DNA of 64,000 bases from Planctomycetota bacterium (GTDB lineage: Bacteria; Planctomycetota; OFTM77). Below are positions 50,438 through 64,000 of this stretch, in pieces (position 1 is the stretch's first letter; the number at the start of each line of letters is the position of its first letter). The stretch covers positions 32,236 through 96,235 of the forward strand of contig JAVJTD010000031.1 in assembly GCA_040219065.1 (NCBI GenBank), in the 5' to 3' direction. The notes beneath the pieces were generated by a model. The model was not told the DNA's origin. It searched no databases and worked only from the letters and a program-made list of their open reading frames with translations. Made by a program: the position numbers and the translations under genes.

Positions 50438-51832
50438 ATGTGGACCCCTGATCTCGAATCCTCTGCTGGACCTCGGTACCTCGCCTTGGCCGATGCCATC
50501 GCCCGCGACATCGCCTCCGGTACGCTTCGCCACGGTGAGCGGCTGCCGACCCACCGAGAGCTCGCCGACCGGCTGGGTATCACCGTCGGCACCGTGACCC
50601 GCGGCTTCGCCGAGGCCGAGCGCCGAGGTCTGACCGTCGGTGAGGTCGGACGAGGTACCTTCGTTCGCGAGGCCGAGGAGAGCATCGCCTGGTTCGGGTC
50701 CGACGAGTCCCGGCGCGAGGGCTTGCTGGAGATGAGCCTGGCAATGCCCTGGCGGCTAGAGGGCGGCGCCGAAGATCGGGCGCTCGCCGAGTCCCTGGCG
50801 ACATTGTCTCGGTGCCGGGATCTCGGACGGCTGCTCCAATACGACCCGGATACCGCGAATCTCGAGCAACGGCGCCGGGCCAGCGAGTGGCTGCGTGGGA
50901 TGCAGGTGCCGGCGAGCCCAGAGAGCCTGATCGTGACGAGCGGCGTGCAGCACGGATTGACCGTCCTCCTCTGCACCATTCTCCGCCCCGGCGACACGCT
51001 CCTGGCCGAAGAGGTGACCTACCCGGCGGTGAAGTCCTTGTCCCAAGCACTGGGCCTGTCGATCCGAGGCGTTGCGATGGACGAGGGCGGGATGATTCCG
51101 GATGCGCTGGATCGGGCCTGCCGCGAGGGCTCTCCGCGTGCGGTCTACCTGATGCCCAACCTGCAGAACCCGACCGGGATCCGCCTCGGCGAGGAGCGTC
51201 GCGAAGCGATCGCCGACATCGCGCGCGAGCATGGTATTTGGATCATCGAGGACGAGGTGCATCGCACGGCCGCGGGTCCGAAGGAAGTGCCGATCGCGGC
51301 CCGCGCGCCGGAGCGGACGTTTCACCTGACCAGCCTCTCGAAGTCGGTCGCCTTCGGCCTGCGAGTCGGGTTCCTCGTCGCGCCCGAGTCGATGGTCGAT
51401 CGCCTGCGCGCCGGTGTGCGCACGACGCTCTGGATGCCGCCGCCGCTGATGGTCGAGATCGCGACGCGCTGGCTGGCCGACGGAACGGCCCTGTCGCTCG
51501 GCGAGCGGCGGGATGAGGAGATGGCGGCGCGGCACGAGATTCTCAGGCGAGAGCTGGGAGAGATCGCGAGCACACCCACAGGTGAGCCGTCGATCTACGT
51601 GTGGATGCGCCTCCCCGAGCCCTGGCGCGGCGAGGAGTTCGTCGCACAGGCGAAGCAGCGAGGCGTCCGGCTGGCCGGCTCCGAGACGTTCGCGGTCGGC
51701 CAAAGGAACGTGCCCCACGCCGTGCGCATCAGCGTCTCGTCGATCGAGAAGCGCGACGACTTCGAGCGCGCCGTCTCGGTCATCGCCGAGCTACTCCAAG
51801 GCCGCGCCGACGCCTGCCTCGACATCGTGTGA
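50438..51832 (+). CDS. MocR/GabR-family regulator (GntR wHTH fused to aminotransferase-like domain)
   Basis: GERLPTHRELADRLGITVGTVTRGF wHTH followed by a class I aminotransferase fold with the PLP-lysine region SLSKSV. It lies divergent from the decarboxylase. Confidence 0.8.
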   Translation: MWTPDLESSAGPRYLALADAIARDIASGTLRHGERLPTHRELADRLGITVGTVTRGFAEAERRGLTVGEVGRGTFVREAEESIAWFGSDESRREGLLEMSLAMPWRLEGGAEDRALAESLATLSRCRDLGRLLQYDPDTANLEQRRRASEWLRGMQVPASPESLIVTSGVQHGLTVLLCTILRPGDTLLAEEVTYPAVKSLSQALGLSIRGVAMDEGGMIPDALDRACREGSPRAVYLMPNLQNPTGIRLGEERREAIADIAREHGIWIIEDEVHRTAAGPKEVPIAARAPERTFHLTSLSKSVAFGLRVGFLVAPESMVDRLRAGVRTTLWMPPPLMVEIATRWLADGTALSLGERRDEEMAARHEILRRELGEIASTPTGEPSIYVWMRLPEPWRGEEFVAQAKQRGVRLAGSETFAVGQRNVPHAVRISVSSIEKRDDFERAVSVIAELLQGRADACLDIV

Positions 51833-51834
51833 GT

Positions 51835-52135
51835 TGGCAATCCGTTCCCGGCACAAATGGCCCACTTTGGCGATCGAGCGCCTGCAATGTTGGCAATCCG
51901 TTCCCGGCACAAATGGCCCACTTTGGCGATCGAGCGCCACCATTGCCCCTGCCTGACCACTTGGCATTTGCGAGAACAAAGGCACCAAGGACCCTCCTCG
52001 ATGTCCCACTCTGTCCAGCAAAGTGGGCCATTCGTGCCGGGAACAAAGTGCTCACTTTAAAAAGTGGGCCATTCGTGCCGGGAACAAAGTGCTCACTTTC
52101 AAAAGTGGGCCATTCGTGCCGGGAACAGAGTGCTC
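51835..52135. repeat. intergenic repeat array: 2 direct 50-nt units plus 3 inverted 41-nt units sharing a roughly 25-nt core
   Basis: GTTGGCAATCCGTTCCCGGCACAAATGGCCCACTTTGGCGATCGAGCGCC twice (51835..51884 and 51891..51940), then AAAGTGGGCCATTCGTGCCGGGAACAAAGTGCTCACTTT three times (52019..52135). The cores are reverse complements. Confidence 0.8.
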
Positions 52136-55100
52136 ACTCGCCGCCGGTGGCGCCTAGCTCGTGAAGGGCGACGTAGTCGAGGCCGAACATGTAGGCCTTC
52201 ACGGCGTCGGGGTGCGCGCCGGTGATCTCGACCACCAGGCGGTGCTCGCCTTCAGTCAGCTCGATCCCCTTGAAGGTCAGGACGCCAGTCGTGATGACAT
52301 CGGGGTCGTTGTACAGATCGATCGGGCCGCCTAGCCTTTGATCGTCGATCGCGAGCTGCACGATGCCGTAATCGCGCGCCCGCGTCATGACCAGGTCGAC
52401 GTCGTACGTGCCGCTCTTCGAGACGGGCACCGCCAGCTCGAGACGATCGCCCGGCTTCGCGCCCGTCCACCACAGATGATCGGCATGGCTCCACTTGTCG
52501 GCCGGGAACCCACCCATCGCCTGGCTCGTGGCCTTGCCCGCCGACTTCGAAAGCACCTTCATCGACTCGCCTTCGATCGCTCCCTTCACGATGCCCGTCT
52601 TCGGGTCGATCGGTGACCGCGCGCCTCGGACGGGCACTTGGACGGGCCTGCGGAGGTAGGCGACCAGGTCAACGACGTCGCGGTCGGAGAGGGGCTCGAG
52701 CAATCCTTCGGGCATGACCGAGATGTTCTGGAGCTGCCGATCCTCGATCTCGCTCTTCGGCACGACGACGGTGTCATTGAGCGTTCGCAGCGTCAACGCG
52801 CTGTCGGTCTCCTTGCGGAGCAAGCCCGAGACGATGCGGCCGTCCTCCAGCCAAGCGACGGTCGAGCGATAGTCATTGCCGAGCACCGCGCTCGGATCGA
52901 ACACGTTCTCGAGCAGGTAATCGAGGTCCGAGCGGTTCGAGCCCGTGATGTCGGGGCCGACGTCCTCGCCCTCCCCGAACAGCATGTGGCAAGTCGAGCA
53001 TGTCTCCTGGAAGAGCATCCGGCCGTGGCTCGGATCGGCGTCCTTCGCCTTCGCGACCAGCGCCTTCACCCGCTCGATGCCCGCCTTCTTCTCCTCCGAC
53101 GTCTCACGCACCTCGCCCCAGACCTTCGTGATGCGCTGATCGAGCTTCGCGTCGTTGAAGCTGCGGAGCTGACGCACATGATAGGCATGCAGATCACGGC
53201 TCGGGATCGTGCCCGCCTGAACAGCATCCAGCAGTGCGCCCGCATAGGCCGGGCGAGTCGTCAGGGCCGAGATCGCGTCGCGCTTTTCCGTCTGCGAGAG
53301 ATTGGCGTAATTGTCCAAGATCGCCTGCGGCGTCCCTGGATCCGACAATTGCGCGAGCGCCTTGAGCGCCGAGCCCCGCAATTGCCCGTTCCCCAGCACC
53401 TGCTGGAACGCCTTCGCCGCCTCGGGATCGCGCGCCTGCACCAGGAACTCGAGCGCCTGCTGACGCTTCTTCATGCCGGCCGACGCATCGGTCAAGACCG
53501 AGCGCAACCGCGGCAGGATCCTCTTGTCGCCGAAGGCGATCGCCACCTGATCGGCACGGTCCCGCACTTCGGCATCGGGATTGGCGAGGAGCGCCGCATA
53601 CGCCTTCTCCCAAGCTGGCGGCATCTCGAGATCCGCTCGTCCTTCGAACGCTTGCAGCATCTCGCCGAGGATCATCTTCCGCCGCGCATCATCCTTAGCC
53701 TCACCGAGGATCGCGACCACCGCATCGATCGCCCTGGGATCGGCTGCCGCCCGGCGAGTGATGAAGCGCGTCAGCAAAGGAATCTCGGAGCGCGTCGCCA
53801 GGCGCATCGCCCGGGCCGTGTCCTTCAAGACCAAAGGCTCGATGCCGTACCAGATCATCAGGGGAAGGTTGTGGTCCTCGGCGTCCTCGCCGTGCCCCGA
53901 CAGTGCCTCCGCGATCGTCCACCGCTGCTCGAGCGGCAAGCGCTGCAGCGCGCTGGTCAGCGCCAAGCGCACGACGGGAGAAGCGTCCTGAGCGGCCATC
54001 TTCTCGAGCTGCGCGAGGCCCTTCTCGTCGATTGTCCGATCCTCGAGATCGAGCTGGATCGCCCAAGCCCGCACGTCGGGCTCTGTGTCACCCCGCAGCT
54101 TTGCAAAGTCGCCGGCCGTCAGCTTCCCGATCGTATGCAGCGTCCAGATGGCCCGCAGTCTCAGCGGTACCGCGTTCGACGCATCGGCGATCTTCCAGAG
54201 CGCCGCCACGACCTCACCCGACAAGTTGCCCTGAGCCGCGCGCTGCTGCAGCTCCTTACGGCTCATGCGCGCGTGCCACTCGTTGGTGTGCTTCTGCAGC
54301 TCGGCGAGGGCGATGTCGTCCATCTTGGCGAGGTCGACCCTGCGCCTTTTCACGTCGCCATAGGTGACGTTGTAGACGCGCCCATTGGAGCGATCCCAGA
54401 TCTCGGGCGAGTTCCGGTGGCAGGCGTTCTTGTCGTACCAGTCGATCAGGTACACGCTGCCATCGGGTCCCGCTCGCAGGTTGATGCCGCGGAACCAGTG
54501 GTCATTGGCCATGAGGAAGTCCGGCGAATGCGTGCCGACGTAGCCGGATCCTTCGGGCACGAGCGCATCGCAGTTGATGCGATTGCCATGGATGTTCGAG
54601 AAGTAGAGCTGATTGCGATACTTCTCCGGCCAATTGTCGCCGAGGTAGATCATGGCGCCGCAATGCGCGTGACCACCGCCCGCGTCCGAGGTATTGGTCG
54701 GAATGCTTTCGGGCTCCTGCCCCCACCACGCGTGGTCGCCGATGTTGCCGGCGTAGTGTGCGTGATCGGCGATCGTCTTGATGTCGTCGAAGACGTACTG
54801 GTTGAAGTGCGTGCCGCCCTGCCTCTGATACCGCGCGCCTTGGATCACGTGGAAGAGGTGCGGAATCACGCAGGCCGTGATGAAGGCGTGCCCGCGGTCG
54901 TTGAAGTCGACGCCCCACGGATTGCTCGAGCCCCAGGCGAAGACCTCGAACTCATGTTTGATGGGATGATAACGCCACACTGCGGCATTCATCGGCGTGC
55001 GATCGGCGTCCTTCGTGCCCGGCTTACCCACCTTCGAATGCGTGAACACCCCGTGGCAGCCGTACAGCCAGCCGTCGGGGCCCCAATTGAACGCGTTCAG

Positions 55101-56768
55101 CGTCTCGTGCGTGTCCTGGTACCCGAAGCCGTCGAGTAGGATCTGCGGCTCACCATCGGGACGGTCATCGCCGTCGGCGTCGGGAATGAACAGGAAGTAC
55201 GGCGCCGCGCCGACCCAAACACCGCCGAACCCGACCTCGAGCCCGCTGACCAGGTTGAGGCCCTCGATGAAGACCTTCCTCTGATCGAGAGCGCCATCAC
55301 CGGTCGTGTCCTCGAGGATCACGATCTTGTCGCGCCCTTTTCCTTCCGGCGCGCGCTGCGGATAGGTGTACGCCTCGGCGACCCAGACACGGCCTTTGCC
55401 GTCGATCGCCATCGCGATCGGCTGATGCACCTGCGGCTCGCCCGCCGCCAGCTTCACGTCGAAGCCCGCCGGCACGGTCATGTGCGCCGCGGCTTCTTCG
55501 GGCAAGAGGCCCGATCGCATCTCGGCCGGCACCTTGGGCTGCGCGTCCTGCCACTCCTCGGCGCTGACCTTCTTCCGCGTATGCGTGATGACGTGGCAGC
55601 CCTTCATCCCGCCCAAGATGATGTCCGGCTGTCCGTTCCCCGTCACGTCGGCGACGTTGACCTGTCGCCCGATGCCCGAGTCGTCGTCCGCCTGATACGG
55701 GATCCACTGCACACCCGCCTCGCCGCGCACCAGCTTGAACCAGTACACGACCGCGCCGGCGTCCCACATCGGGCTCTGCTCGTGGTGGGACCAATACGTC
55801 TTGCCCGTGACGATGTCCTTCAGGCCGTCACCGTCCATGTCGGCGAGGGCGACGCTGTGCAGCTCGGTGAAGAGGACGCCGTAGGGATTGTCCTCGGGCT
55901 TCCAGCCCATGATGACGTGCCGCTCGAAGTCGGTGCCGTCGCCCTTGTTCTCGAACCAGGCCAGCCCGTACTCGTGCGCCTCGAGGCTGGTGATGACGTC
56001 CTGGTCGCCGTCCCCGTCGACATCGTAGGCGTACATCTCCGCGCCGCCCTTGGGCGCGAACACGTACTGGTGCAGCGTCCACATCGGGTCGCCGTCCAGG
56101 CTCTTCGGCTGCTCGAACCAGCCGTGCTGCATCAGGACGTCGTGGCGCCCGTCCCCATTGACATCGCCCACGCCCAGCCCGTGCCCGAACTGCCTCGCCG
56201 CAATCGGCTCCGACAAGGGATGGAACGTCCAACGCTCGAACGGCTGCTTCGGATCCCAGGTCGCGTAGCCGAACCGACCGCCGCGCGTGCACACCAGCTC
56301 CGGCCGCTCGTCGCCGGCGATCTGCGTGAAGTGCGGCGACTCGTTCGAGACCGAGTTGAACACCTCGTGCTTCGGCCAGTGCTCGCCCTGCCCGTCCTTC
56401 CCCGGGTTCTCGTACACGTACGCCGGCTTCGACGGGAAGCCCACCACGAAGACGTCTCGCCAGCCATCCCCGTCGAAGTCGTACACCCACGCGAAGAAGT
56501 TATCGGCGTAGGCGTGGACGTTCTGCGCGACGGGCTCGTAGATCTCGTGAGCCGTCTTCCAGTCGGGCCCCTCGTACCAGTACGGCCCGTAGACGACATC
56601 GACGTGCCCGTCGTTGTTCAAATCTCCATAGCCGGCCCCTTCGGAGAAGTAGGTCCCGGTGAGCTCATGTCTCTCGAACTCGTGGAGGAAGTGGTCGTCG
56701 TCAGCGAAGCCCAGAGGAGACAGAACGGCGGCGAAGGACAGGCCGAGGAGAGTGCGAGTGATCAACAC
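52134..56768 (-). CDS. giant secreted multidomain protein: FG-GAP repeats, SGL-like beta-propeller dehydrogenase-like region, HEAT repeats, c-type cytochrome module, C-terminal beta domain
   Basis: Signal peptide, DxDGDG repeats, a GFGYQDTHETLNAFNWGPDGWLYGCHG propeller region, a HEAT-like ARM array, CSTCH heme-binding motif with downstream Met, and a C-terminal beta-sandwich-like domain. Confidence 0.7.
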   Translation of the reverse strand: MLITRTLLGLSFAAVLSPLGFADDDHFLHEFERHELTGTYFSEGAGYGDLNNDGHVDVVYGPYWYEGPDWKTAHEIYEPVAQNVHAYADNFFAWVYDFDGDGWRDVFVVGFPSKPAYVYENPGKDGQGEHWPKHEVFNSVSNESPHFTQIAGDERPELVCTRGGRFGYATWDPKQPFERWTFHPLSEPIAARQFGHGLGVGDVNGDGRHDVLMQHGWFEQPKSLDGDPMWTLHQYVFAPKGGAEMYAYDVDGDGDQDVITSLEAHEYGLAWFENKGDGTDFERHVIMGWKPEDNPYGVLFTELHSVALADMDGDGLKDIVTGKTYWSHHEQSPMWDAGAVVYWFKLVRGEAGVQWIPYQADDDSGIGRQVNVADVTGNGQPDIILGGMKGCHVITHTRKKVSAEEWQDAQPKVPAEMRSGLLPEEAAAHMTVPAGFDVKLAAGEPQVHQPIAMAIDGKGRVWVAEAYTYPQRAPEGKGRDKIVILEDTTGDGALDQRKVFIEGLNLVSGLEVGFGGVWVGAAPYFLFIPDADGDDRPDGEPQILLDGFGYQDTHETLNAFNWGPDGWLYGCHGVFTHSKVGKPGTKDADRTPMNAAVWRYHPIKHEFEVFAWGSSNPWGVDFNDRGHAFITACVIPHLFHVIQGARYQRQGGTHFNQYVFDDIKTIADHAHYAGNIGDHAWWGQEPESIPTNTSDAGGGHAHCGAMIYLGDNWPEKYRNQLYFSNIHGNRINCDALVPEGSGYVGTHSPDFLMANDHWFRGINLRAGPDGSVYLIDWYDKNACHRNSPEIWDRSNGRVYNVTYGDVKRRRVDLAKMDDIALAELQKHTNEWHARMSRKELQQRAAQGNLSGEVVAALWKIADASNAVPLRLRAIWTLHTIGKLTAGDFAKLRGDTEPDVRAWAIQLDLEDRTIDEKGLAQLEKMAAQDASPVVRLALTSALQRLPLEQRWTIAEALSGHGEDAEDHNLPLMIWYGIEPLVLKDTARAMRLATRSEIPLLTRFITRRAAADPRAIDAVVAILGEAKDDARRKMILGEMLQAFEGRADLEMPPAWEKAYAALLANPDAEVRDRADQVAIAFGDKRILPRLRSVLTDASAGMKKRQQALEFLVQARDPEAAKAFQQVLGNGQLRGSALKALAQLSDPGTPQAILDNYANLSQTEKRDAISALTTRPAYAGALLDAVQAGTIPSRDLHAYHVRQLRSFNDAKLDQRITKVWGEVRETSEEKKAGIERVKALVAKAKDADPSHGRMLFQETCSTCHMLFGEGEDVGPDITGSNRSDLDYLLENVFDPSAVLGNDYRSTVAWLEDGRIVSGLLRKETDSALTLRTLNDTVVVPKSEIEDRQLQNISVMPEGLLEPLSDRDVVDLVAYLRRPVQVPVRGARSPIDPKTGIVKGAIEGESMKVLSKSAGKATSQAMGGFPADKWSHADHLWWTGAKPGDRLELAVPVSKSGTYDVDLVMTRARDYGIVQLAIDDQRLGGPIDLYNDPDVITTGVLTFKGIELTEGEHRLVVEITGAHPDAVKAYMFGLDYVALHELGATGGE

Positions 56769-56984
56769 GATAGGGCTCTTCCTGGAGAAATGGGCCGGGC
56801 TGGAAGTGGGGCGAGCTTCGTGCCGCTCAGGCTACGGCAGACGGCTGGAAGGGGCAAGCCTGGAGGGAGGGTTGGGCGCCAGGAGTGCCTGAGCCGAATG
56901 AGCCTGTGGCCGCGAATCGAAGCCGACGCCACCGAGCGAGCGAGCTGTCCGACTGCCGGAGCTGCTCGAGGATCTTCAGATTGA

Positions 56985-57150
56985 AGTCCTGCGAGGCGAC
57001 CATGTTCCTTCGCGCATACCACACCTCCACACCCGCCGCGTCGTAGTAGGGCGCGATGGTCTGCTCGACCAGGTCCTGGTCGACGTAGGAGCAGCTGACG
57101 AACAGACGCGGCACAGCATCACCCAGTGAAGGCGCGATTCCTCGGAACAC
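56985..57150 (-). pseudogene. 5' fragment of a TIR-domain gene
   Basis: MFRGIAPSLGDAVPRLFVSCSYVDQDLVEQTIAPYYDAAGVEVWYARRNMVASQDFNLKILEQLRQSD matches the first roughly 55 aa of bacterial TIR domains ((D/K)(V/L)F(V/I)S(Y/C)...). The reading frame then degenerates. Confidence 0.3.
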
Positions 57151-57255: not shown

Positions 57256-58578
57256 ATGCTCAAACCGCTCTGTTTCGTGCTCATGCCTTTCGGTGTGAAG
57301 CCAGGTCCCGATGGCCGGGACATCGACTTCGACGAGGTGTATCGCGAGCTGCTGAAGCCCGCCATCGAGGAGGCGGACCTCGAGCCGATCCGCGCTGACG
57401 AGGAGAGTGTCGGCGGCGTCATCCACAAGCCGATGCTCGAGCGACTCGCGATGTGTGACTACGCGCTCGCCGATCTCACCGCGGCCAATGCCAACGTGTT
57501 CTACGAGCTCGGCGTGCGGCACGCGATCCGGCCGTCACGCACGCTGCTCGTGTTCGCCGAGGAGTACCCGCTCCCCTTCGACGTCAGCCTGCTGCGCGCC
57601 GTGCCCTATCACCTCGGGCAGAAGGGACTCATCAAGGTTCCCCAGACGATCCACGCGATCGCGAGACAGCTCGAAGAGGCGCGCCAAGCCAAGATCGACA
57701 GTCCCGTCTTCCAGTTCCTCGATGACCTGCAGCCGCAGTTCCTCCCTCACGAGAAGACCGACGTCTTTCAGGATCGCGTCGAGTATGCCGAAGACCGCAA
57801 GCGCGAGCTCGCCCGAGCCCGTGAGGACAAGAACCTCGCCGCGGTCCAGCAGATCGAGCGTGAGCTCGGCCCGGTCGAGGATGTCGAAGCCGGCATCGCG
57901 ATCGACCTGATGCTCACCTATCGCGCCATCAAGAATTGGGACGAGATGATCCGCTGGATCGAGTCGCTCCCCAGGCCCCTTCGAGAGCGCCGCATGGTCC
58001 AGGAGCAGCTCGGCTTCGCCTACAATCGCGCCGGGAAGAAGGGCGATGCGATCCGCACTCTCGAGGCCGTCGTCGAGCAGCACGGCCCGAGCAGCGAGAC
58101 GCTCGGCATCCTCGGCCGAGTCTACAAGGACAAGTGGGACGAATCCGACAAGGGCTCGGCAGAGGCGAACGGCCTTCTGGACAAGGCGATCGATGCCTAC
58201 CGCCGAGGCTTCGAAGCCGACTGGCGAGACGCCTATCCGGGTGTCAATGCCGTAACGCTGATGGAGCTGGCCGACCCACCGCGGAAAGAGCGCGATGAGC
58301 TGCTACCAGTCGTGACGTACGCCGTCGAGAGAAAGGTCGCCAAAGGCAGCCCCGACTATTGGGACTGGGCCACCCTCCTCGAGCTCGCCGTCATCGGCAA
58401 TGACAAGAACCTCGCCAAAGAGCTCCTCCCCCTGTGCCTAGCCAACGTCCGAGAGCCCTGGGAGCCCGAAACCACGGCTAACAACCTCGAGATGATTCGC
58501 CAGGCGAGGAAGAGGCGGGGCAAGAATCAAGGCTGGCTGAAGAAGATCATCGCGGGGTTGGTGGAGAAGGGGAATTGA
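57256..58578 (+). CDS. nucleoside 2-deoxyribosyltransferase-like (SLOG/flavodoxin-like) N-terminal domain fused to a TPR-like helical C-terminal domain
   Basis: CFVLMPFG and NVFYELGVRHA motifs mirror the NDT (L/I)AGPxF and FE(L/I)G(Y/F)A motifs. The C-terminal roughly 250 aa are alpha-helical repeats (YPGVNAVTLMELAD). Confidence 0.55.
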   Translation: MLKPLCFVLMPFGVKPGPDGRDIDFDEVYRELLKPAIEEADLEPIRADEESVGGVIHKPMLERLAMCDYALADLTAANANVFYELGVRHAIRPSRTLLVFAEEYPLPFDVSLLRAVPYHLGQKGLIKVPQTIHAIARQLEEARQAKIDSPVFQFLDDLQPQFLPHEKTDVFQDRVEYAEDRKRELARAREDKNLAAVQQIERELGPVEDVEAGIAIDLMLTYRAIKNWDEMIRWIESLPRPLRERRMVQEQLGFAYNRAGKKGDAIRTLEAVVEQHGPSSETLGILGRVYKDKWDESDKGSAEANGLLDKAIDAYRRGFEADWRDAYPGVNAVTLMELADPPRKERDELLPVVTYAVERKVAKGSPDYWDWATLLELAVIGNDKNLAKELLPLCLANVREPWEPETTANNLEMIRQARKRRGKNQGWLKKIIAGLVEKGN

Positions 58579-58627
58579 ACACGGAGGACACGGGGAGATT
58601 CATACGACAGGAGCACGGGGTCCTTCA

Positions 58628-61600
58628 TCACTGCTCACTGTCCTTCGGTGACGCGGCTTCGAGTAGGGTTTGGAGTTGGCCGACGTGGTTGCGGATGGTC
58701 GAGAGTCTCTTTGACCGGGTGGATTGGAGGATGTCGTTCACGGCTTTTTGGATAATCTCCTTCGCGGCGCTTTGCTGGGCGTCATCGAGGGTGATTTGGC
58801 CGCCTTGCAGCTTCAGTGCTTGGATGAGGGCTTCGAGTGATTCGCGCTCTTCTCGGAGGCTCTCGAGCTCGGTCTCGAGCCTCTCGAGGTCGGCACGGAG
58901 GGAGGCATCGCTGAGCTTCTCGACTTCCGCTTCTTGCTCGTGGATGTTCCCTTCGGCGGCAGTCACTTGTCCCTTCGCCTGTTCGAGACTCTCCTCCGCC
59001 GCCTCGATTGCCTGACGCCGGTCCTCGATGTCCTCGTTCAACGCCTCGAGATCCGCTTCTCTCTCCTGCAGCTCAGCGGTCACCTCATTCAGCTCTTGCT
59101 CGAGGGCCGCTCGCTCCTCTTCGTCCTCTGTCTCGGCGATCTGGTTCGTCAGCTCTCCTTGGCGCTGCCTCAATGCCGTGATCGCTTCCGCGAGGGGGTC
59201 GACCTTGCTCTCCTCTTCCAACAATTGAGTGCGGAGATCCGACAAGGCAGCTTCATGCCTCGTGACCTCCGTCTCCTTCTTGGCCTTCTCGTCCTGGAGC
59301 CCCTTCAGCGCGTCGCGGGCATCCTTCTGCCTAGCTTCTTGATCTTGCTCGAGCTGCTCCCTGTTCGACTCGATCGCCTCCTCGTGCTCAGCGATATCAC
59401 CTTCGACCTGCTCGAGGGTGGGTCCTGAAGCAAAGTCGTCTCCGGCCTCGTTCAGCTCATGATCGAGGGCGTCCTTCTCGGACAGGAAGTCGTAGGCGGC
59501 GTTCTTCACGACCGGCTCCGAGATGGCCCGGACGTACGCTTCGCCGCGACTCTTCAGCTCCTCCAATGCGGCTCGGAGCTTCTCGGGTGCCTCCTCGGCA
59601 GAGATCTCCTCGGGCAACGCCGTCACTTCGGCGGTGTCCAGTGCAGTCCGAAGCCAGGCCAAGTTGTCCGTCCTCTCGGCGGGTGTGTCGCCCAGCCGCT
59701 CGTCCTCGCGAAGCTTTGTGAGCAGCTCGGCTTCGAGCTTCGAGGCCTCCTCGCGAAGAGCGTCGTACGCTTGCTTTGCCGCCTTCTCGGACGTCGACCG
59801 CTCGTTCTTCAGCAAGGTCTGCATGAGCTGAACGTCTTCGACCTGATTCGACTGGAGCTCCGGCATCGGGTCGCCGGGCTGCATGGCGAGGATCTTCTGC
59901 GCGTCGACCAGCGCCACGGGACTGATCGAGCCAGCCGCAGCGAACATCGCCAGGTTCTTGGCGGTCTCGATGATCTTCTCGGTCGTGGCCTTGTAGCTCT
60001 TGACGTACCAGTTGCCGATGTCGTCCTTGACGACGACGTAGCTCGAGCTGCCGGGACCGCCCAGTTTGACCGTATTCACGGTCTGCCAGAACTGCTCGTC
60101 GATGTCCTCGAGTGTCCGAGCCTTCGCCTCGACCTCGGGATCCGGAATGCGCCCGCTGTGTGCCTGGGCCTCACCGATCGGCCGCAGGCCGACGCGGTCC
60201 CTGGGAGACTGATCCGATTCGTCGGCGCCGGTCGTGACGTAACTGTTACGCAAGAAGGCGACCGCAGGTCGGACGAAGATCATTCCGCTGCGCTCGGCGT
60301 AAGCGACATCGAGCGCCTCTCGGTACTTCTTGGCCTCCTGGGAGTCCTGCCCCTCTCTCTCGACGCAGCGGATGAACTCGTGCCGCAGGCGCGCAATGAC
60401 TGCGTCCATCACCTGACGTGGACTCTCGAAAGTCGGCTCACCTGCTTTGTCTACCTGATCGCAAACAAGGCACTTACAAGCCTGGTCCTGTCCGCTCCAC
60501 TCGAGGCGCGCCCGCTCCTTCTGCTGCTCGGCGAATCGATCGCTCGCCGCGATCGCATCCACCTGACTGAGGATCGAGTTCGCCACCGCGGACAGCACGT
60601 CGCTGTTCTTGGTCAGGATCTGGTCGGCGCTCTCATAGTCCTTCCACTCGTAGAGCAATGATTGGAAGCCGGCCAAGAAGCGCAGCTTCTCGGCGAAGCG
60701 CACCAACCCATCGAGCAAGCGCCGCTTCTCATTCAGGCTGGTCGGGTTGCCTGGAGACTCGTAGGCCGCATCGACATAGTTCTCGATCAGGGACTCGAGG
60801 CCGATGAGCAGACGACCACCGTCGAGACCTTGAAGTGCTGTGACGCTTCGATCCAGCTCTCGAAACGCTTCCTCCGAGAAACGGGAGGTGATTCGCTGCG
60901 CCTCTTCATCGTCGACGCTGGCCGGACCGATGACGGTACCGTACTGACGACGCGCTGCCCTCAGAGCCTCTGAGTCGCGCTTCGAGTATCCCTCGATCCG
61001 CTCGCTATCGAGGTACTCGTCATACTCCGACCTCATACCTTCCGGAAGGGCCAAGCCGTTCCGAAAGGCCTCGTCGATCACCAGGAGCCAGGTGCTGACA
61101 CGAACAGGAGCCTTCTCGAGCTCGAGCTCCATGTCATCGAAATAGGCGCGATACGTCGACTCCAGATCCTGCGCTCCCGGCGAGCCTTTTCCCTCGTCAG
61201 GGGCTGGCTCGCTCGTCTTGCCTGAGTCCTGGCGAGTATTCTGCACTTTCTGAAGCTGGTCGCTGACACGCCGGATGGCATCGGGCTGGTTGGCTTCCGT
61301 CTGACCGTCCGATGCAACGAGTCGAAGACTTTCGGGGAGGTTGCTGTTGTGAGCCGCAGCCCAGAGCAAGTCGGGCGAGGCCAGACGAGCGACCGCGCGC
61401 CGTGCCGCAAATCGCAATGCGGGTGCCTGAGGAATGTCGAGATCGGAATCCGTGGCGAGGAATAGTGCGGCGCTTCTCCAGACTTCGGCGAGGTCGGAGC
61501 GCGACTCACCGAAGGCCGCACTGATGGCCTCGACCCTGCTGACGAACCTCTCGGCGAGCGATCTCTGCCGGCCTTTCGGCTCGGCGAACAACAATCGGGC

Positions 61601-62458
61601 ATGGGCCGTGGCGACGGCCGGATCAGCCAATGCCTCGAAGATCACATTGGCGCCCAGCTCATCCACCGTCTTGGAGGCCATGATCGGAACTCCACTGACG
61701 ATGGGGATCTCTGGCTTGCTCAGCCGCCGCAGCACCTCGTCATTGGTCGCGGCTTCGAGGAGGGAGAGGTGAGCCTTCAGGAGTGCGTTCTGATCGCGGA
61801 AGGAGTACCGTCCGTCCTTCCTCTTGCCAGGAAGGAGGAAGCCCCGGTAGGCCTCTCGAAGCGCCCGCCGTTGCTGAGAGATGCCCGGGCTCTTTTCCGC
61901 CAACTCCTCGAAGTGACCCTCGGACTCTTCGTACGCGACAACGACTTCTCGCCAGAGCTCCGCGTCGATCTCGGGATCGACCAACACCAACGCCCGCGCC
62001 CTCTCGAATGACTCGAAGGCCGCAAGCCCCGTCACCACCGTCTCGGGAACTTCACCTTGATGTTGGTCCTCGTAGAGGCTCAGCAGCGAGTTCACACGCC
62101 GCGCATGCGGGTTCTTGAAGAACGGATAGCGGTCACTGGAGATCGTCTCCGGCGAATCACTCGGCTTCGGCACATAGTCATCCGCAAGCCAACCTTGCTC
62201 GCGAAGGAGCGCGCCGGAGTTGGCTCGTCCGGGAAATCGCTCTCGCCCCTCCAGCTCATCTCGCAGCTCGATCAGCAGTGGCTTGGCGCCGATGGCCATC
62301 GCGGCGATCTGCTCGATCTGGACGGTCTCGTCGTTGGCCAACGGCCCCTTGTAGACGTCGACATCGATGCGCAGCTTGGCACAGGAGGCGAGGAGGAGAG
62401 TCGGGACGAGGAGCCAGGGCGTGGCTTGTTGGATTCCGCTGGGTCGCTGGTGACGCAT
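58628..62458 (-). CDS. giant coiled-coil lipoprotein (1276 aa)
   Basis: The start is set at MRHQRP (lipobox LLLASC), overlapping the upstream gene stop (ATGA). The 181-aa Arg/Pro-rich extension in the ORF track is rejected. The C-terminal roughly 400 aa are E/A/L/Q-rich heptad coiled coil. Confidence 0.55.
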   Translation of the reverse strand: MRHQRPSGIQQATPWLLVPTLLLASCAKLRIDVDVYKGPLANDETVQIEQIAAMAIGAKPLLIELRDELEGRERFPGRANSGALLREQGWLADDYVPKPSDSPETISSDRYPFFKNPHARRVNSLLSLYEDQHQGEVPETVVTGLAAFESFERARALVLVDPEIDAELWREVVVAYEESEGHFEELAEKSPGISQQRRALREAYRGFLLPGKRKDGRYSFRDQNALLKAHLSLLEAATNDEVLRRLSKPEIPIVSGVPIMASKTVDELGANVIFEALADPAVATAHARLLFAEPKGRQRSLAERFVSRVEAISAAFGESRSDLAEVWRSAALFLATDSDLDIPQAPALRFAARRAVARLASPDLLWAAAHNSNLPESLRLVASDGQTEANQPDAIRRVSDQLQKVQNTRQDSGKTSEPAPDEGKGSPGAQDLESTYRAYFDDMELELEKAPVRVSTWLLVIDEAFRNGLALPEGMRSEYDEYLDSERIEGYSKRDSEALRAARRQYGTVIGPASVDDEEAQRITSRFSEEAFRELDRSVTALQGLDGGRLLIGLESLIENYVDAAYESPGNPTSLNEKRRLLDGLVRFAEKLRFLAGFQSLLYEWKDYESADQILTKNSDVLSAVANSILSQVDAIAASDRFAEQQKERARLEWSGQDQACKCLVCDQVDKAGEPTFESPRQVMDAVIARLRHEFIRCVEREGQDSQEAKKYREALDVAYAERSGMIFVRPAVAFLRNSYVTTGADESDQSPRDRVGLRPIGEAQAHSGRIPDPEVEAKARTLEDIDEQFWQTVNTVKLGGPGSSSYVVVKDDIGNWYVKSYKATTEKIIETAKNLAMFAAAGSISPVALVDAQKILAMQPGDPMPELQSNQVEDVQLMQTLLKNERSTSEKAAKQAYDALREEASKLEAELLTKLREDERLGDTPAERTDNLAWLRTALDTAEVTALPEEISAEEAPEKLRAALEELKSRGEAYVRAISEPVVKNAAYDFLSEKDALDHELNEAGDDFASGPTLEQVEGDIAEHEEAIESNREQLEQDQEARQKDARDALKGLQDEKAKKETEVTRHEAALSDLRTQLLEEESKVDPLAEAITALRQRQGELTNQIAETEDEEERAALEQELNEVTAELQEREADLEALNEDIEDRRQAIEAAEESLEQAKGQVTAAEGNIHEQEAEVEKLSDASLRADLERLETELESLREERESLEALIQALKLQGGQITLDDAQQSAAKEIIQKAVNDILQSTRSKRLSTIRNHVGQLQTLLEAASPKDSEQ

Positions 62459-63069
62459 CACTGTCCCTCCTCCTTCGAATCGTCCAAGAGATCGATCGAT
62501 TCGAGCTGCTCGGTCTCCTCGACGAGCTCGACGATACGCTCGAGGATCTTGCCGCTCTGGCTGCTGACGGTTTGCTCCTGGAGAGCCTTTGCGGCCGAGA
62601 GCTGTCCGAGCGCCGTGTCGATCGCTTCGAAGAAGGCCGAGGGGTCGGAGTCCATGATGATCGCCAGGCGATGATCTCGCGGCGCTTCGCGGAACCCTTC
62701 GGGTCCGAAGAGCATCAGGCCGCGGCCTGTCTTCAGACCGAAGTTCTGACTCTCTCCGTCGTGGCCGAACTGCAGCTCGCCCTTCTCCCGGTCGAACGTG
62801 ATCCGCGAGCCGAGCGAATCGATCAGGTCCGCCGGAACCCAGCCGGCGGCGTAATTGACCGTGCTGAAGAAGTCCGAGGTCCCGGTGACGCGCACGCGGT
62901 AGATCGTCGGCGGCACCTGCTCGATGGGATCGAACACCCCGAGGTAATACGTCTGCTCGATCTGGTGCGATCGGCAGCTCGCGGCGAGGAAGACCGTCCA
63001 CAACCCGGCAATCAGGAAAGCGCCCTGGCCAAAGCGTCCGACCCGCCGGCTCCGTCCACGATGAATCAT
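62458..63069 (-). CDS. small lipoprotein (203 aa)
   Basis: Signal peptide plus lipobox FLAASC. Translationally coupled to the giant coiled-coil gene. Confidence 0.45.
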   Translation of the reverse strand: MIHRGRSRRVGRFGQGAFLIAGLWTVFLAASCRSHQIEQTYYLGVFDPIEQVPPTIYRVRVTGTSDFFSTVNYAAGWVPADLIDSLGSRITFDREKGELQFGHDGESQNFGLKTGRGLMLFGPEGFREAPRDHRLAIIMDSDPSAFFEAIDTALGQLSAAKALQEQTVSSQSGKILERIVELVEETEQLESIDLLDDSKEEGQ

Positions 63070-63206
63070 GACGCGCGGTCTCCTCGCTGATGTCTGGGAC
63101 CTACCCGGGCGAAGCTTACCTCATCGCTTCATTCCGGGAGCCTCACTATACTGCCCGTCCATTGGAATGCACCGATCAGTTCGAATTCGCCCCCGGCAAT
63201 CGCCCA

Positions 63207-63863
63207 TCAAGTACGAGGCACGTCTCGCTCGCTCTTGCTCCCAGTATTCAACGGCGGGCGCTTCTCCAACGCGTCCGACTCTCGCTTCTCGCCGCCGCCA
63301 TTCGGCGGACGCTCACCGCTCGACTCCTCCTTCCACCAGCGGTCGATCTTGCCCCGCTTCAGGAACAACCGATCGAAGACCAGCAGATGTACGAGAGCCA
63401 AGATCCATCCGACGGTGGCGAGCCCGACTCCGAGGAGCACACGGCTGAGCAAGTTGCGGGGCCGTAGCAGTGCTTCGATGTACTTCGAGAACTGGCCGAA
63501 GAGCTTCATGCCGACGTAGGTGATCAGAGCGCCGCCCGCGATCGAGAGGATCAGCCAAAAGGCCCCGCCGTAAGTGAGGATCGCCCGCTCTCCCTCGCTG
63601 AACAGGAACCAGAGGGCAGCGCTGACAGCCAGGACGCACGCGGCCATGCCTGTCCACTTCAGCGCAGGAATGGCGTGCCAGATCTTGAACGCGCGCTTCT
63701 CACCGATGTCGAGGAGCTCGGTGACCTCGGCGTTGGCGGCGTCCTTTCCGATGAGGCGACGCATCCGCAGGAACGGCCAATCCGCTTCGGCGACGGGCTC
63801 CCGCGAGAGCTGCGCGACTCCCGCTCGAAGCTTCGCCTTGGTCATCTCGTAGCCGCTCAGCAT
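63207..63863 (-). CDS. membrane protein (four predicted TM helices), function unknown
   Basis: Hydrophobic segments ACVLAVSAALWFLF, GGAFWLILSIAGGALITYVG and LLGVGLATVGWILALVHLLV. The N-terminus may continue beyond the ORF-track start. Confidence 0.45.
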   Translation of the reverse strand: MLSGYEMTKAKLRAGVAQLSREPVAEADWPFLRMRRLIGKDAANAEVTELLDIGEKRAFKIWHAIPALKWTGMAACVLAVSAALWFLFSEGERAILTYGGAFWLILSIAGGALITYVGMKLFGQFSKYIEALLRPRNLLSRVLLGVGLATVGWILALVHLLVFDRLFLKRGKIDRWWKEESSGERPPNGGGEKRESDALEKRPPLNTGSKSERDVPRT

Positions 63864-64000
63864 CAGGCCGTAGCACTCGATCTCGCTGAACGAGTCGAGA
63901 TCCGTACGCAGCTTGGAGAGGCATTTCTGAATGCCCGGATCGATCTGGAAGCCGCCCTCGTCGCCTGACTCCGCCGCAAGCGGAATCGTCGACTTGCGTT

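Follow-up and report, generated by a model that had tools for sequence, protein, structure and literature searches.

Five credible open reading frames (ORFs) lie between 56.8 and 64.0 kb of the stretch of DNA analysed here (64,000 nucleotides of contig JAVJTD010000031.1 from a Planctomycetota bacterium, hereafter the window), and we consider it probable that the region they form is composite. A 440-aa protein of the ThsI type and an 892-aa protein that combines a TPR-S domain, a patatin domain and transmembrane (TM) segments would be effectors of a defence system resembling type VIII Thoeris, and an unrelated cassette of two lipoprotein genes would be located between them. An earlier sequence-only reading had described the same block as a candidate novel accessory module of an island, in which the 440-aa protein stands opposite a three-gene operon on the minus strand. 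The NCBI entries for the exact 440-aa protein and for the 203-aa protein, one of the two lipoproteins, label the source as a Planctomycetota metagenome-assembled genome (MAG).

The 440-aa plus-strand product was found where it had been read (Table 1) and matches Pfam families PF13281 (MAP3K_TRAF_bd, 1e-43) and PF20308 (TPR-S, 3e-29). A profile of its N-terminal 150 residues matches Rcl/DNPH1 (E=6e-5), with FYELG of the 440-aa protein aligned to GYELG of the enzyme, catalytic Glu included. We take the Glu of the Rcl/DNPH1 YELG motif to be the known nucleophile. Residues N78, N80 and E84 do not vary among 28 homologues of the 440-aa protein, and MilB and a TIR-STING chain are among the structure matches listed for its N-terminal domain. 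Residues 1-155 alone gave no Pfam match and did not pass the threshold of family PF05014; the domain is related to the nucleoside 2-deoxyribosyltransferase (NDT) family only at the level of profile and fold. No SLOG family was matched by the 440-aa protein in Pfam, NCBIfam and PADLOC scans. Thus, of the earlier description of an NDT-like, SLOG-type pocket fused to tetratricopeptide repeats (TPR), the NDT-like and TPR parts stand, and the label 'SLOG-type' is imprecise: the domain belongs with the NDT/MilB/DNPH1 and TIR branches. As judged from its conserved residues, the protein is a predicted MilB/DNPH1-like N-glycosidase with an intact NxN…E motif, fused to an ASK1-like TPR-S domain. The glycosidase domain also occurs alone, without TPR-S, as 'hypothetical protein' in 43 Streptococcus and Staphylococcus phage records (e.g., NC_004585.1 3201-3836), and it matches phrog_3634.

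For both domains, the best match in sequence as well as in structure is the N-terminal regulatory region of human ASK1/MAP3K5 (thioredoxin-binding domain and TPR; PDB 8qgy, 5ulm). This match and the relatives ThsI and BcTpr described below bear out the suggested kinship to MAP3K-regulatory regions and to prokaryotic conflict systems. In contrast to ASK1, the 440-aa protein ends after the TPR, with no PH or kinase match. ASK1 reads FYHLG where the 440-aa protein reads FYELG and, since His replaces the catalytic Glu, the ASK1 domain is probably a non-catalytic binding module. The bacterial proteins, which keep the Glu lost in ASK1, help to read the thioredoxin-binding domain of the human protein as a degenerate nucleotide glycosidase.

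The novelty claimed for the block does not hold, since the 440-aa family is already known: it has been defined computationally (Pfam TPR-S), and its members have been shown to be anti-phage proteins under the names ThsI and BcTpr. Type VIII Thoeris was validated from Yersinia enterocolitica Ye11102_2 and from a Pseudomonas metagenomic scaffold and is called especially abundant in Pseudomonadota (10.64898/2025.12.03.692087). According to the same preprint, the TIR protein ThsB alone makes canonical cyclic ADP-ribose (cADPR) on infection, exogenous cADPR suffices for growth arrest of cells with type VIII Thoeris, and ThsI is sometimes encoded in one operon with the SLATT protein ThsH. Like the 440-aa protein, ThsI is composed of a CMP hydrolase (MilB-like) N-terminal domain and a TPR domain that Aravind had predicted; its catalytic motif is conserved in the 440-aa protein, and TIR genes are enriched around the 440-aa family. 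On the Pseudomonas plasmid pA7J1, a TIR gene begins 6 bp after the gene of a TPR-S protein (PF20308, 6e-26) annotated as 'TRAFs-binding domain-containing protein'; the TIR product matches PF08937 (ThsB_TIR) and shares 76% identity with the TIR sequence given for the type VIII system validated from Pseudomonas. This ThsI-like plasmid protein carries the same Pfam pair as the 440-aa protein, of which the alignment covers residues 3-416 at 27% identity (E=2e-42); the catalytic motif is aligned as NANVFYELG in the 440-aa protein and NPNAIYELG in the plasmid protein. A plasmid of Rhizobium encodes a homologue with 50% identity to the 440-aa protein in an operon of the order TPR-S protein, SLATT_3+SLATT_1, TIR, which corresponds to the operons with ThsH and ThsI (10.64898/2025.12.03.692087).

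The other relative, BcTpr of Bacillus cereus (~415 aa), acts in defence together with BcTir and consists of a MilB-like glycosidase (residues 1-189) and a C-terminal TPR (10.1101/2023.05.26.542521). Its predicted substrate contacts include N80, P81, N82 and E86, and substitutions N82A and E86A kill activity. The authors of that preprint report that BcTpr, not BcTir, makes a cADPR isomer, via E86 and N82. They also counted 'Tpr alone', 'Tir-Tpr' and 'Patatin-Tpr' assemblies, the first being the commonest (29/78 operons), and refer to Burroughs & Aravind 2020 for assemblies with TPR beside TIR domains. In its motif and architecture, as described, BcTpr resembles the 440-aa protein; it differs in being encoded beside a TIR gene.

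The second effector is only partly contained in the window. A Logan contig that differs from the window at 2 of 8216 overlapping bases carries the full 892-aa gene (L001 7423-10101), which extends 1885 bp past the window end, so that the window holds the C-terminal quarter. Since the full gene is seen on this near-identical contig, the 218-aa '4-TM membrane protein' that had been read at 63207-63863 is a window-edge artefact, namely the tail of the 892-aa protein; ORFs at the edge of a window can pass for small membrane proteins. The full-length protein matches TPR-S at residues 27-147 (9e-15) and patatin PF01734 at residues 286-541 (7e-17), and contains hydrophobic segments at 744-766, 769-789 and 812-839. 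At its N-terminus, it can be aligned (E=1e-14) to the part of the plasmid ThsI-like protein that holds the TPR. The patatin motifs GGGFR, VSGGS and DGG are conserved in 15/15 sequences, the first Gly of the patatin GxSxG being replaced by C, T or S. It had been stated that none of the three minus-strand proteins has an enzymatic motif; this was wrong because the third is a patatin with conserved GGGxR, xVSGG and DGG. Nor is the three-gene operon a unit, as its third member is a partner effector of the 440-aa protein.

Patatin effectors of the CapV type, found in CBASS, are nucleotide-triggered phospholipases that destroy membranes. The 892-aa protein resembles them as a patatin-like phospholipase with GGGxR, Ser and DGG, but its sensor is the N-terminal TPR-S domain, it has 3-4 C-terminal TM helices and it presumably binds a product of TIR instead of a cyclic dinucleotide. 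As a TPR-S-patatin-TM protein, it also lies outside the validated Thoeris effectors. In the closest relative, a Planctomycetota MAG (71% identity), the glycosidase and patatin genes (the latter 66% identical to that of the window) are convergent and directly adjacent, 102 bp apart, with no lipoprotein cassette. The two genes are likewise convergent in the window but, with the lipoprotein gene pair in between, lie at a distance of 4.6 kb.

In order to survey the genomic company of the 440-aa family, one genome per species was scanned, which yielded 80 loci; their ORFs were called and clustered, and representatives were annotated. The subfamily is 51-71% identical in loci from many bacterial lineages. 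Such conservation is unusually high for a defence gene and would therefore imply strong constraint together with horizontal spread. The lineages include Planctomycetota, Acidobacteriota, Nitrospirota, Campylobacterota, Cyanobacteria and Pelotomaculum (loci L009-L088). Plasmids also carry homologues of the 440-aa protein: 68 were found, and 33 of these are conjugative.

Partners were counted in the 73 loci with a called homologue of the 440-aa protein, TIR ORFs being detected with an iterated profile seeded on Pfam-verified TIR. A second TPR-S effector, usually the next gene, is present in 27/73 loci: patatin with TM segments in 14, Trypsin_2 in 6, α/β-hydrolase in 4 and CHAT in 3. The 892-aa protein is thus a recurrent partner of the 440-aa family. 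TIR ORFs are present in 31/73 loci, no more than two genes away in 25, and in some of the loci there are five or six of them. At least one of the two, TIR or TPR-S effector, accompanies the 440-aa homologue in 46/73 loci, and 27/73 homologues have neither; a TPR-S effector without TIR is found in 16/73. In two loci, the domains are joined in fusions of the Rosetta-stone kind. At L033 11394-14597, TIR_2, TM, TPR-S and patatin form one polypeptide, and at L068 8259-9560, a paralogue that fuses TIR_2 with TPR-S adjoins a glycosidase-TPR-S gene.

The two genes between the effectors encode lipoproteins. The sequence-only reading had correctly seen a small and a 1276-aa lipoprotein here: both products have lipobox signal peptides, FLAASC in the 203-aa and LLLASC in the 1276-aa protein, as read from the translation, the 1276-aa ORF being started at the ATG that precedes the signal peptide. 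The lipid-bearing Cys26 is invariant in 44 sequences of the 1276-aa family, and a lipobox-like motif is present in 35/44 homologues of the 1276-aa and 67/120 homologues of the 203-aa protein. The junction of the two genes is TGATG with a 1-nt overlap, not the ATGA reported at 62458. In the metagenome scan, the large gene directly follows the small one in 62/62 loci with room downstream. In five annotated contexts, a gene for a 167-214-aa protein always precedes the large gene, and the small proteins are 41-55% identical to that of the window.

Neither family could be assigned to a known one. Precomputed Pfam annotation is empty for all 44 homologues of the 1276-aa protein; the 203-aa family falls into 987 clusters when grouped at 90% identity and has 245 representatives at the 50% level, and no Pfam domain occurs in any of them. 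The names shown are all 'hypothetical protein', and Engelhardtia mirabilis, Candidatus Brocadia and Desulfobacteraceae are among the sources. Profile searches with both families against PDB sequences and Pfam gave no match, nor did NCBIfam. Conserved blocks of the 1276-aa protein span residues 26-330, 500-650 and 675-860, with an invariant C26-x5-DVDVYKGPL right after the lipidation site and an invariant W791-Q-x2-N ... K-D812-D-I-G-N-W-Y-V-K; no match was found for the motifs DVDVYKGPL, KDDIGNWYVK and FGPEGFR..P.DHRL. Its heptad signal is strongest at about residues 1000-1250, which agrees with the proposed C-terminal coiled coil, but the coiled coil is not continuous over the last 400 residues, as prolines break the stretch 860-1090. 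The tail (about 880-1250) is lineage-specific and is not conserved in most homologues. The 203-aa protein is predicted to consist of a β-rich domain (35-140) and a long C-terminal helix of about 60 residues (143-201; pLDDT 72), and its model has no fold match. Among the candidates tried for the 1276-aa protein, LmuB, SMC, Rad50, tail needle and tape measure matches in PADLOC, NCBIfam and PHROG reflected coiled-coil composition and fell far below the cutoffs. The SMC, Rad50 and LmuB matches span coiled-coil segments only, and no ABC-type ATPase head or P-loop family was matched; the cassette has no characterised relative, and what it shares with known proteins is generic, namely lipobox signal peptides and coiled-coil segments that resemble SMC, Rad50, LmuB and the phage tail needle by composition.

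The sequence-only reading had proposed to follow the block across related genomes. Patatin recurs with the 440-aa family as described above; in contrast, a lipoprotein gene of either kind was found at 0/80 loci of the 440-aa family, and the 440-aa family was found at 0/80 cassette loci of the metagenome scan. No cassette was found on a plasmid. Its flanks are not conserved, and several of the five annotated contexts are of the housekeeping type (ribonucleotide reductase, NADH-dehydrogenase/antiporter subunits, MgtE). We conclude that the 203-aa and 1276-aa genes are an autonomous, translationally coupled cassette with no detectable link to defence. Their products may form one lipid-anchored envelope complex. 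Promoter and terminator scans and RNA folding gave no informative signal for the 137-bp spacer between the patatin gene and the cassette, and Rfam gave no match. Repeats were sought around the cassette as traces of an insertion, and only short ones at chance level were found.

The neighbourhood is a defence island made of known parts, and in this respect the earlier description of a defence island stands, although the block is not one module. The TIR remnant noted beside it was confirmed: the ORF aligns with positions 2-56 of the 122-position PF13676 (TIR_2) profile and, with 24 bits (E=6e-5), stays under the cutoff of 28 bits. The remnant and the 440-aa gene point away from each other across 106 bp. 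The remainder of the TIR domain was not found in the other two frames at the remnant, and neither the intact TIR_2 gene nor the TIRs near homologues of the 440-aa protein showed significant similarity to the remnant. An intact TIR_2 protein (426 aa, 1e-14) is encoded beyond the patatin gene, 7.3 kb off, in another transcription unit outside the window. It is part of L171 1-6705, ~2.1-8.8 kb past the window end, which also contains genes of a bpMoxR AAA+ protein (327 aa; 34.6 bits, cutoff 27), a 972-aa protein and a WD40 β-propeller. The bpMoxR and WD40 genes resemble MoxR-vWA-β-propeller systems (Kaur et al. 2020); the 972-aa protein between them has no Pfam match and no vWA domain was detected in it.

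From homology to the validated type VIII Thoeris, we infer the following course of events. A TIR protein would sense phage infection and make a cyclic ADP-ribose signal (canonical cADPR in tested systems). The ADPR isomer made by the TIR would be bound by TPR-S, the one sensor domain that the 440-aa and 892-aa effectors share. The 440-aa glycosidase would then destroy nucleotides or NAD+, the 892-aa patatin would degrade membrane phospholipid, and the infected cell would stop, i.e., undergo abortive infection. The intact TIR_2 gene is the only candidate producer of the signal nearby, the adjacent TIR having decayed to a half-domain.

Several observations weigh against this explanation. The 440-aa protein is only 27% identical to the ThsI-like plasmid protein and belongs to a separate, unusually conserved subfamily whose role in defence is predicted by homology. 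No ThsB-type TIR gene shares an operon with the 440-aa gene, and the window contains no adjacent or co-oriented intact TIR gene. A TIR-dependent trigger is not guaranteed for the subfamily because 9/14 glycosidase and patatin loci have no TIR in the retrieved flanks. The experimental preprints disagree on the maker of the signal, which is the TIR in one (10.64898/2025.12.03.692087) and the glycosidase itself in the other (10.1101/2023.05.26.542521). Finally, the cassette follows the patatin gene on the same strand after 137 bp, so that co-transcription is possible, and in one metagenomic lineage, a patatin-like gene is located two genes after the cassette (L162 12264-13711; L164 6497-8368).

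Among the alternatives, it is unlikely, yet deserving of attention, that the system is independent of TIR, the 440-aa glycosidase making a cADPR isomer from NAD+ and the TPR-S-patatin protein sensing this product and acting as the executor. This alternative stays alive because an adjacent TIR is missing and many glycosidase and patatin loci lack one. In several of these TIR-less loci, the two genes are co-directional with gaps of 22-53 bp; in the window, the adjacent TIR has decayed while both effectors keep their catalytic motifs. The 16 loci with a TPR-S effector but no TIR and the activity reported for BcTpr point in the same direction. However, many loci are on short contigs, so that a TIR may fall outside the flank, and the surroundings of the family are strongly enriched in TIR genes; production of cADPR by TIR alone and the arrest of type VIII cells by exogenous cADPR also speak for a TIR-made signal. 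The truncated TIR and the insertion of the cassette between two genes that are adjacent in the closest relative could instead be signs of a decaying island, with orphaned, non-functional effectors on their way to being lost. We regard this as quite improbable: both effector ORFs are full length and retain every invariant catalytic residue, and an intact TIR_2 gene is still present 7.3 kb away. Moreover, a solitary copy is a normal state of the family, given that 27/73 homologues are partnerless and that 'Tpr alone' was the commonest assembly in the published count.

A still more integrated arrangement, in which the 440-aa protein, the membrane patatin protein and both lipoproteins work together in envelope-linked signalling, would account for the contiguity of the genes and for the common strand and short gap of the lipoprotein pair and the patatin gene; a CHAT protein beside the cassette in L089 and the patatin-like gene of L162/L164 also speak for it. 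It is very improbable. The linkage counts, zero in both directions, largely refute it, and the adjacent effectors of the closest relative, the housekeeping contexts of other cassettes and the lack of plasmid-borne copies, against 68 plasmids for the 440-aa family, point the same way. The patatin of L162/L164 is 40-46% identical to the patatin region of the window protein and has no TPR-S; this is the only other proximity of patatin and cassette seen, it is limited to one lineage and is probably coincidental, and we dropped a functional tie of the lipoprotein pair to patatin genes.

With two effectors and an unrelated cassette as the preferred explanation, the locus adds Planctomycetota to the range of the ThsI/TPR-S family. 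The recurrent arrangement of a ThsI-like protein with a TPR-S-patatin-TM protein, often without TIR, bears on the dispute between the preprints over a TIR- or glycosidase-made signal. The lipoprotein pair, unannotated, strictly coupled and sharply conserved in its motifs, is a reasonable target for studies of envelope biology in the Planctomycetes-Verrucomicrobia-Chlamydiae (PVC) group. More tentatively, and as a reading that we hold less likely than not, TPR-S may be a portable receiver through which one nucleotide signal, made by TIR or by glycosidase, fires N-glycosidase, patatin-TM, trypsin, CHAT and α/β-hydrolase effectors. Glycosidase-TPR-S would then be the constant hub, and the glycosidase and patatin pair possibly a TIR-independent Thoeris-like type. 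Separately, the lipoprotein pair would be a new kind of envelope complex, without known relatives, in Planctomycetota and further lineages.

Table 1. Features identified in the 56.8-64.0 kb part of the window (positions are those of the window).
Feature	Position	Strand	Remarks
Truncated TIR-domain remnant, 107-aa ORF	56827..57150	-	N-terminal half of TIR_2, then non-TIR sequence
440-aa ThsI-like protein	57256..58578	+	MilB/DNPH1-like glycosidase + TPR-S
Predicted N-terminal MilB/DNPH1-like N-glycosidase domain, NDT/'DRHyd' branch of TIR-like fold	57256..57705	+	Motif N78-A-N80...Y83-E84-L-G
TPR-S / ASK1-CRR-like repeat domain of the 440-aa protein, predicted ligand sensor	57754..58578	+	
1276-aa lipoprotein, unannotated family, downstream cassette gene	58628..62458	-	
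203-aa lipoprotein, unannotated family, upstream cassette gene	62458..63069	-	
C-terminal end with TM segments of the 892-aa TPR-S + patatin + TM protein	63207..64000	-	

Composition was considered as a mark of foreign origin and rejected, as neither GC nor GC at third codon positions (GC3) is discriminating for the block. The window is GC-rich (0.62-0.68); total GC of the block (0.62-0.64) is slightly below 0.65-0.68, and other parts of the window dip lower still. The comparison of GC and codon usage with the flanks that the sequence-only reading had suggested likewise did not set the block apart, with GC3 of 0.77-0.84 in its genes and 0.87 in the flanking gene.

Upstream of the block, a gene for a 1544-aa protein (52134-56768) encodes FG-GAP-like repeats in its N-terminal part and a C-terminal CxxCH motif. 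This FG-GAP/cytochrome c gene is of a kind typical of Planctomycetota and seems to be part of the normal chromosomal background. A 41-nt element (about AAAGTGGGCCATTCGTGCCGGGAACAAAGTGCTCACTTT) without Rfam match is present in at least five copies, in both orientations, at window positions 51830-52142. They are located just 3′ of the stop codon of the 1544-aa gene and resemble a REP-like intergenic array.

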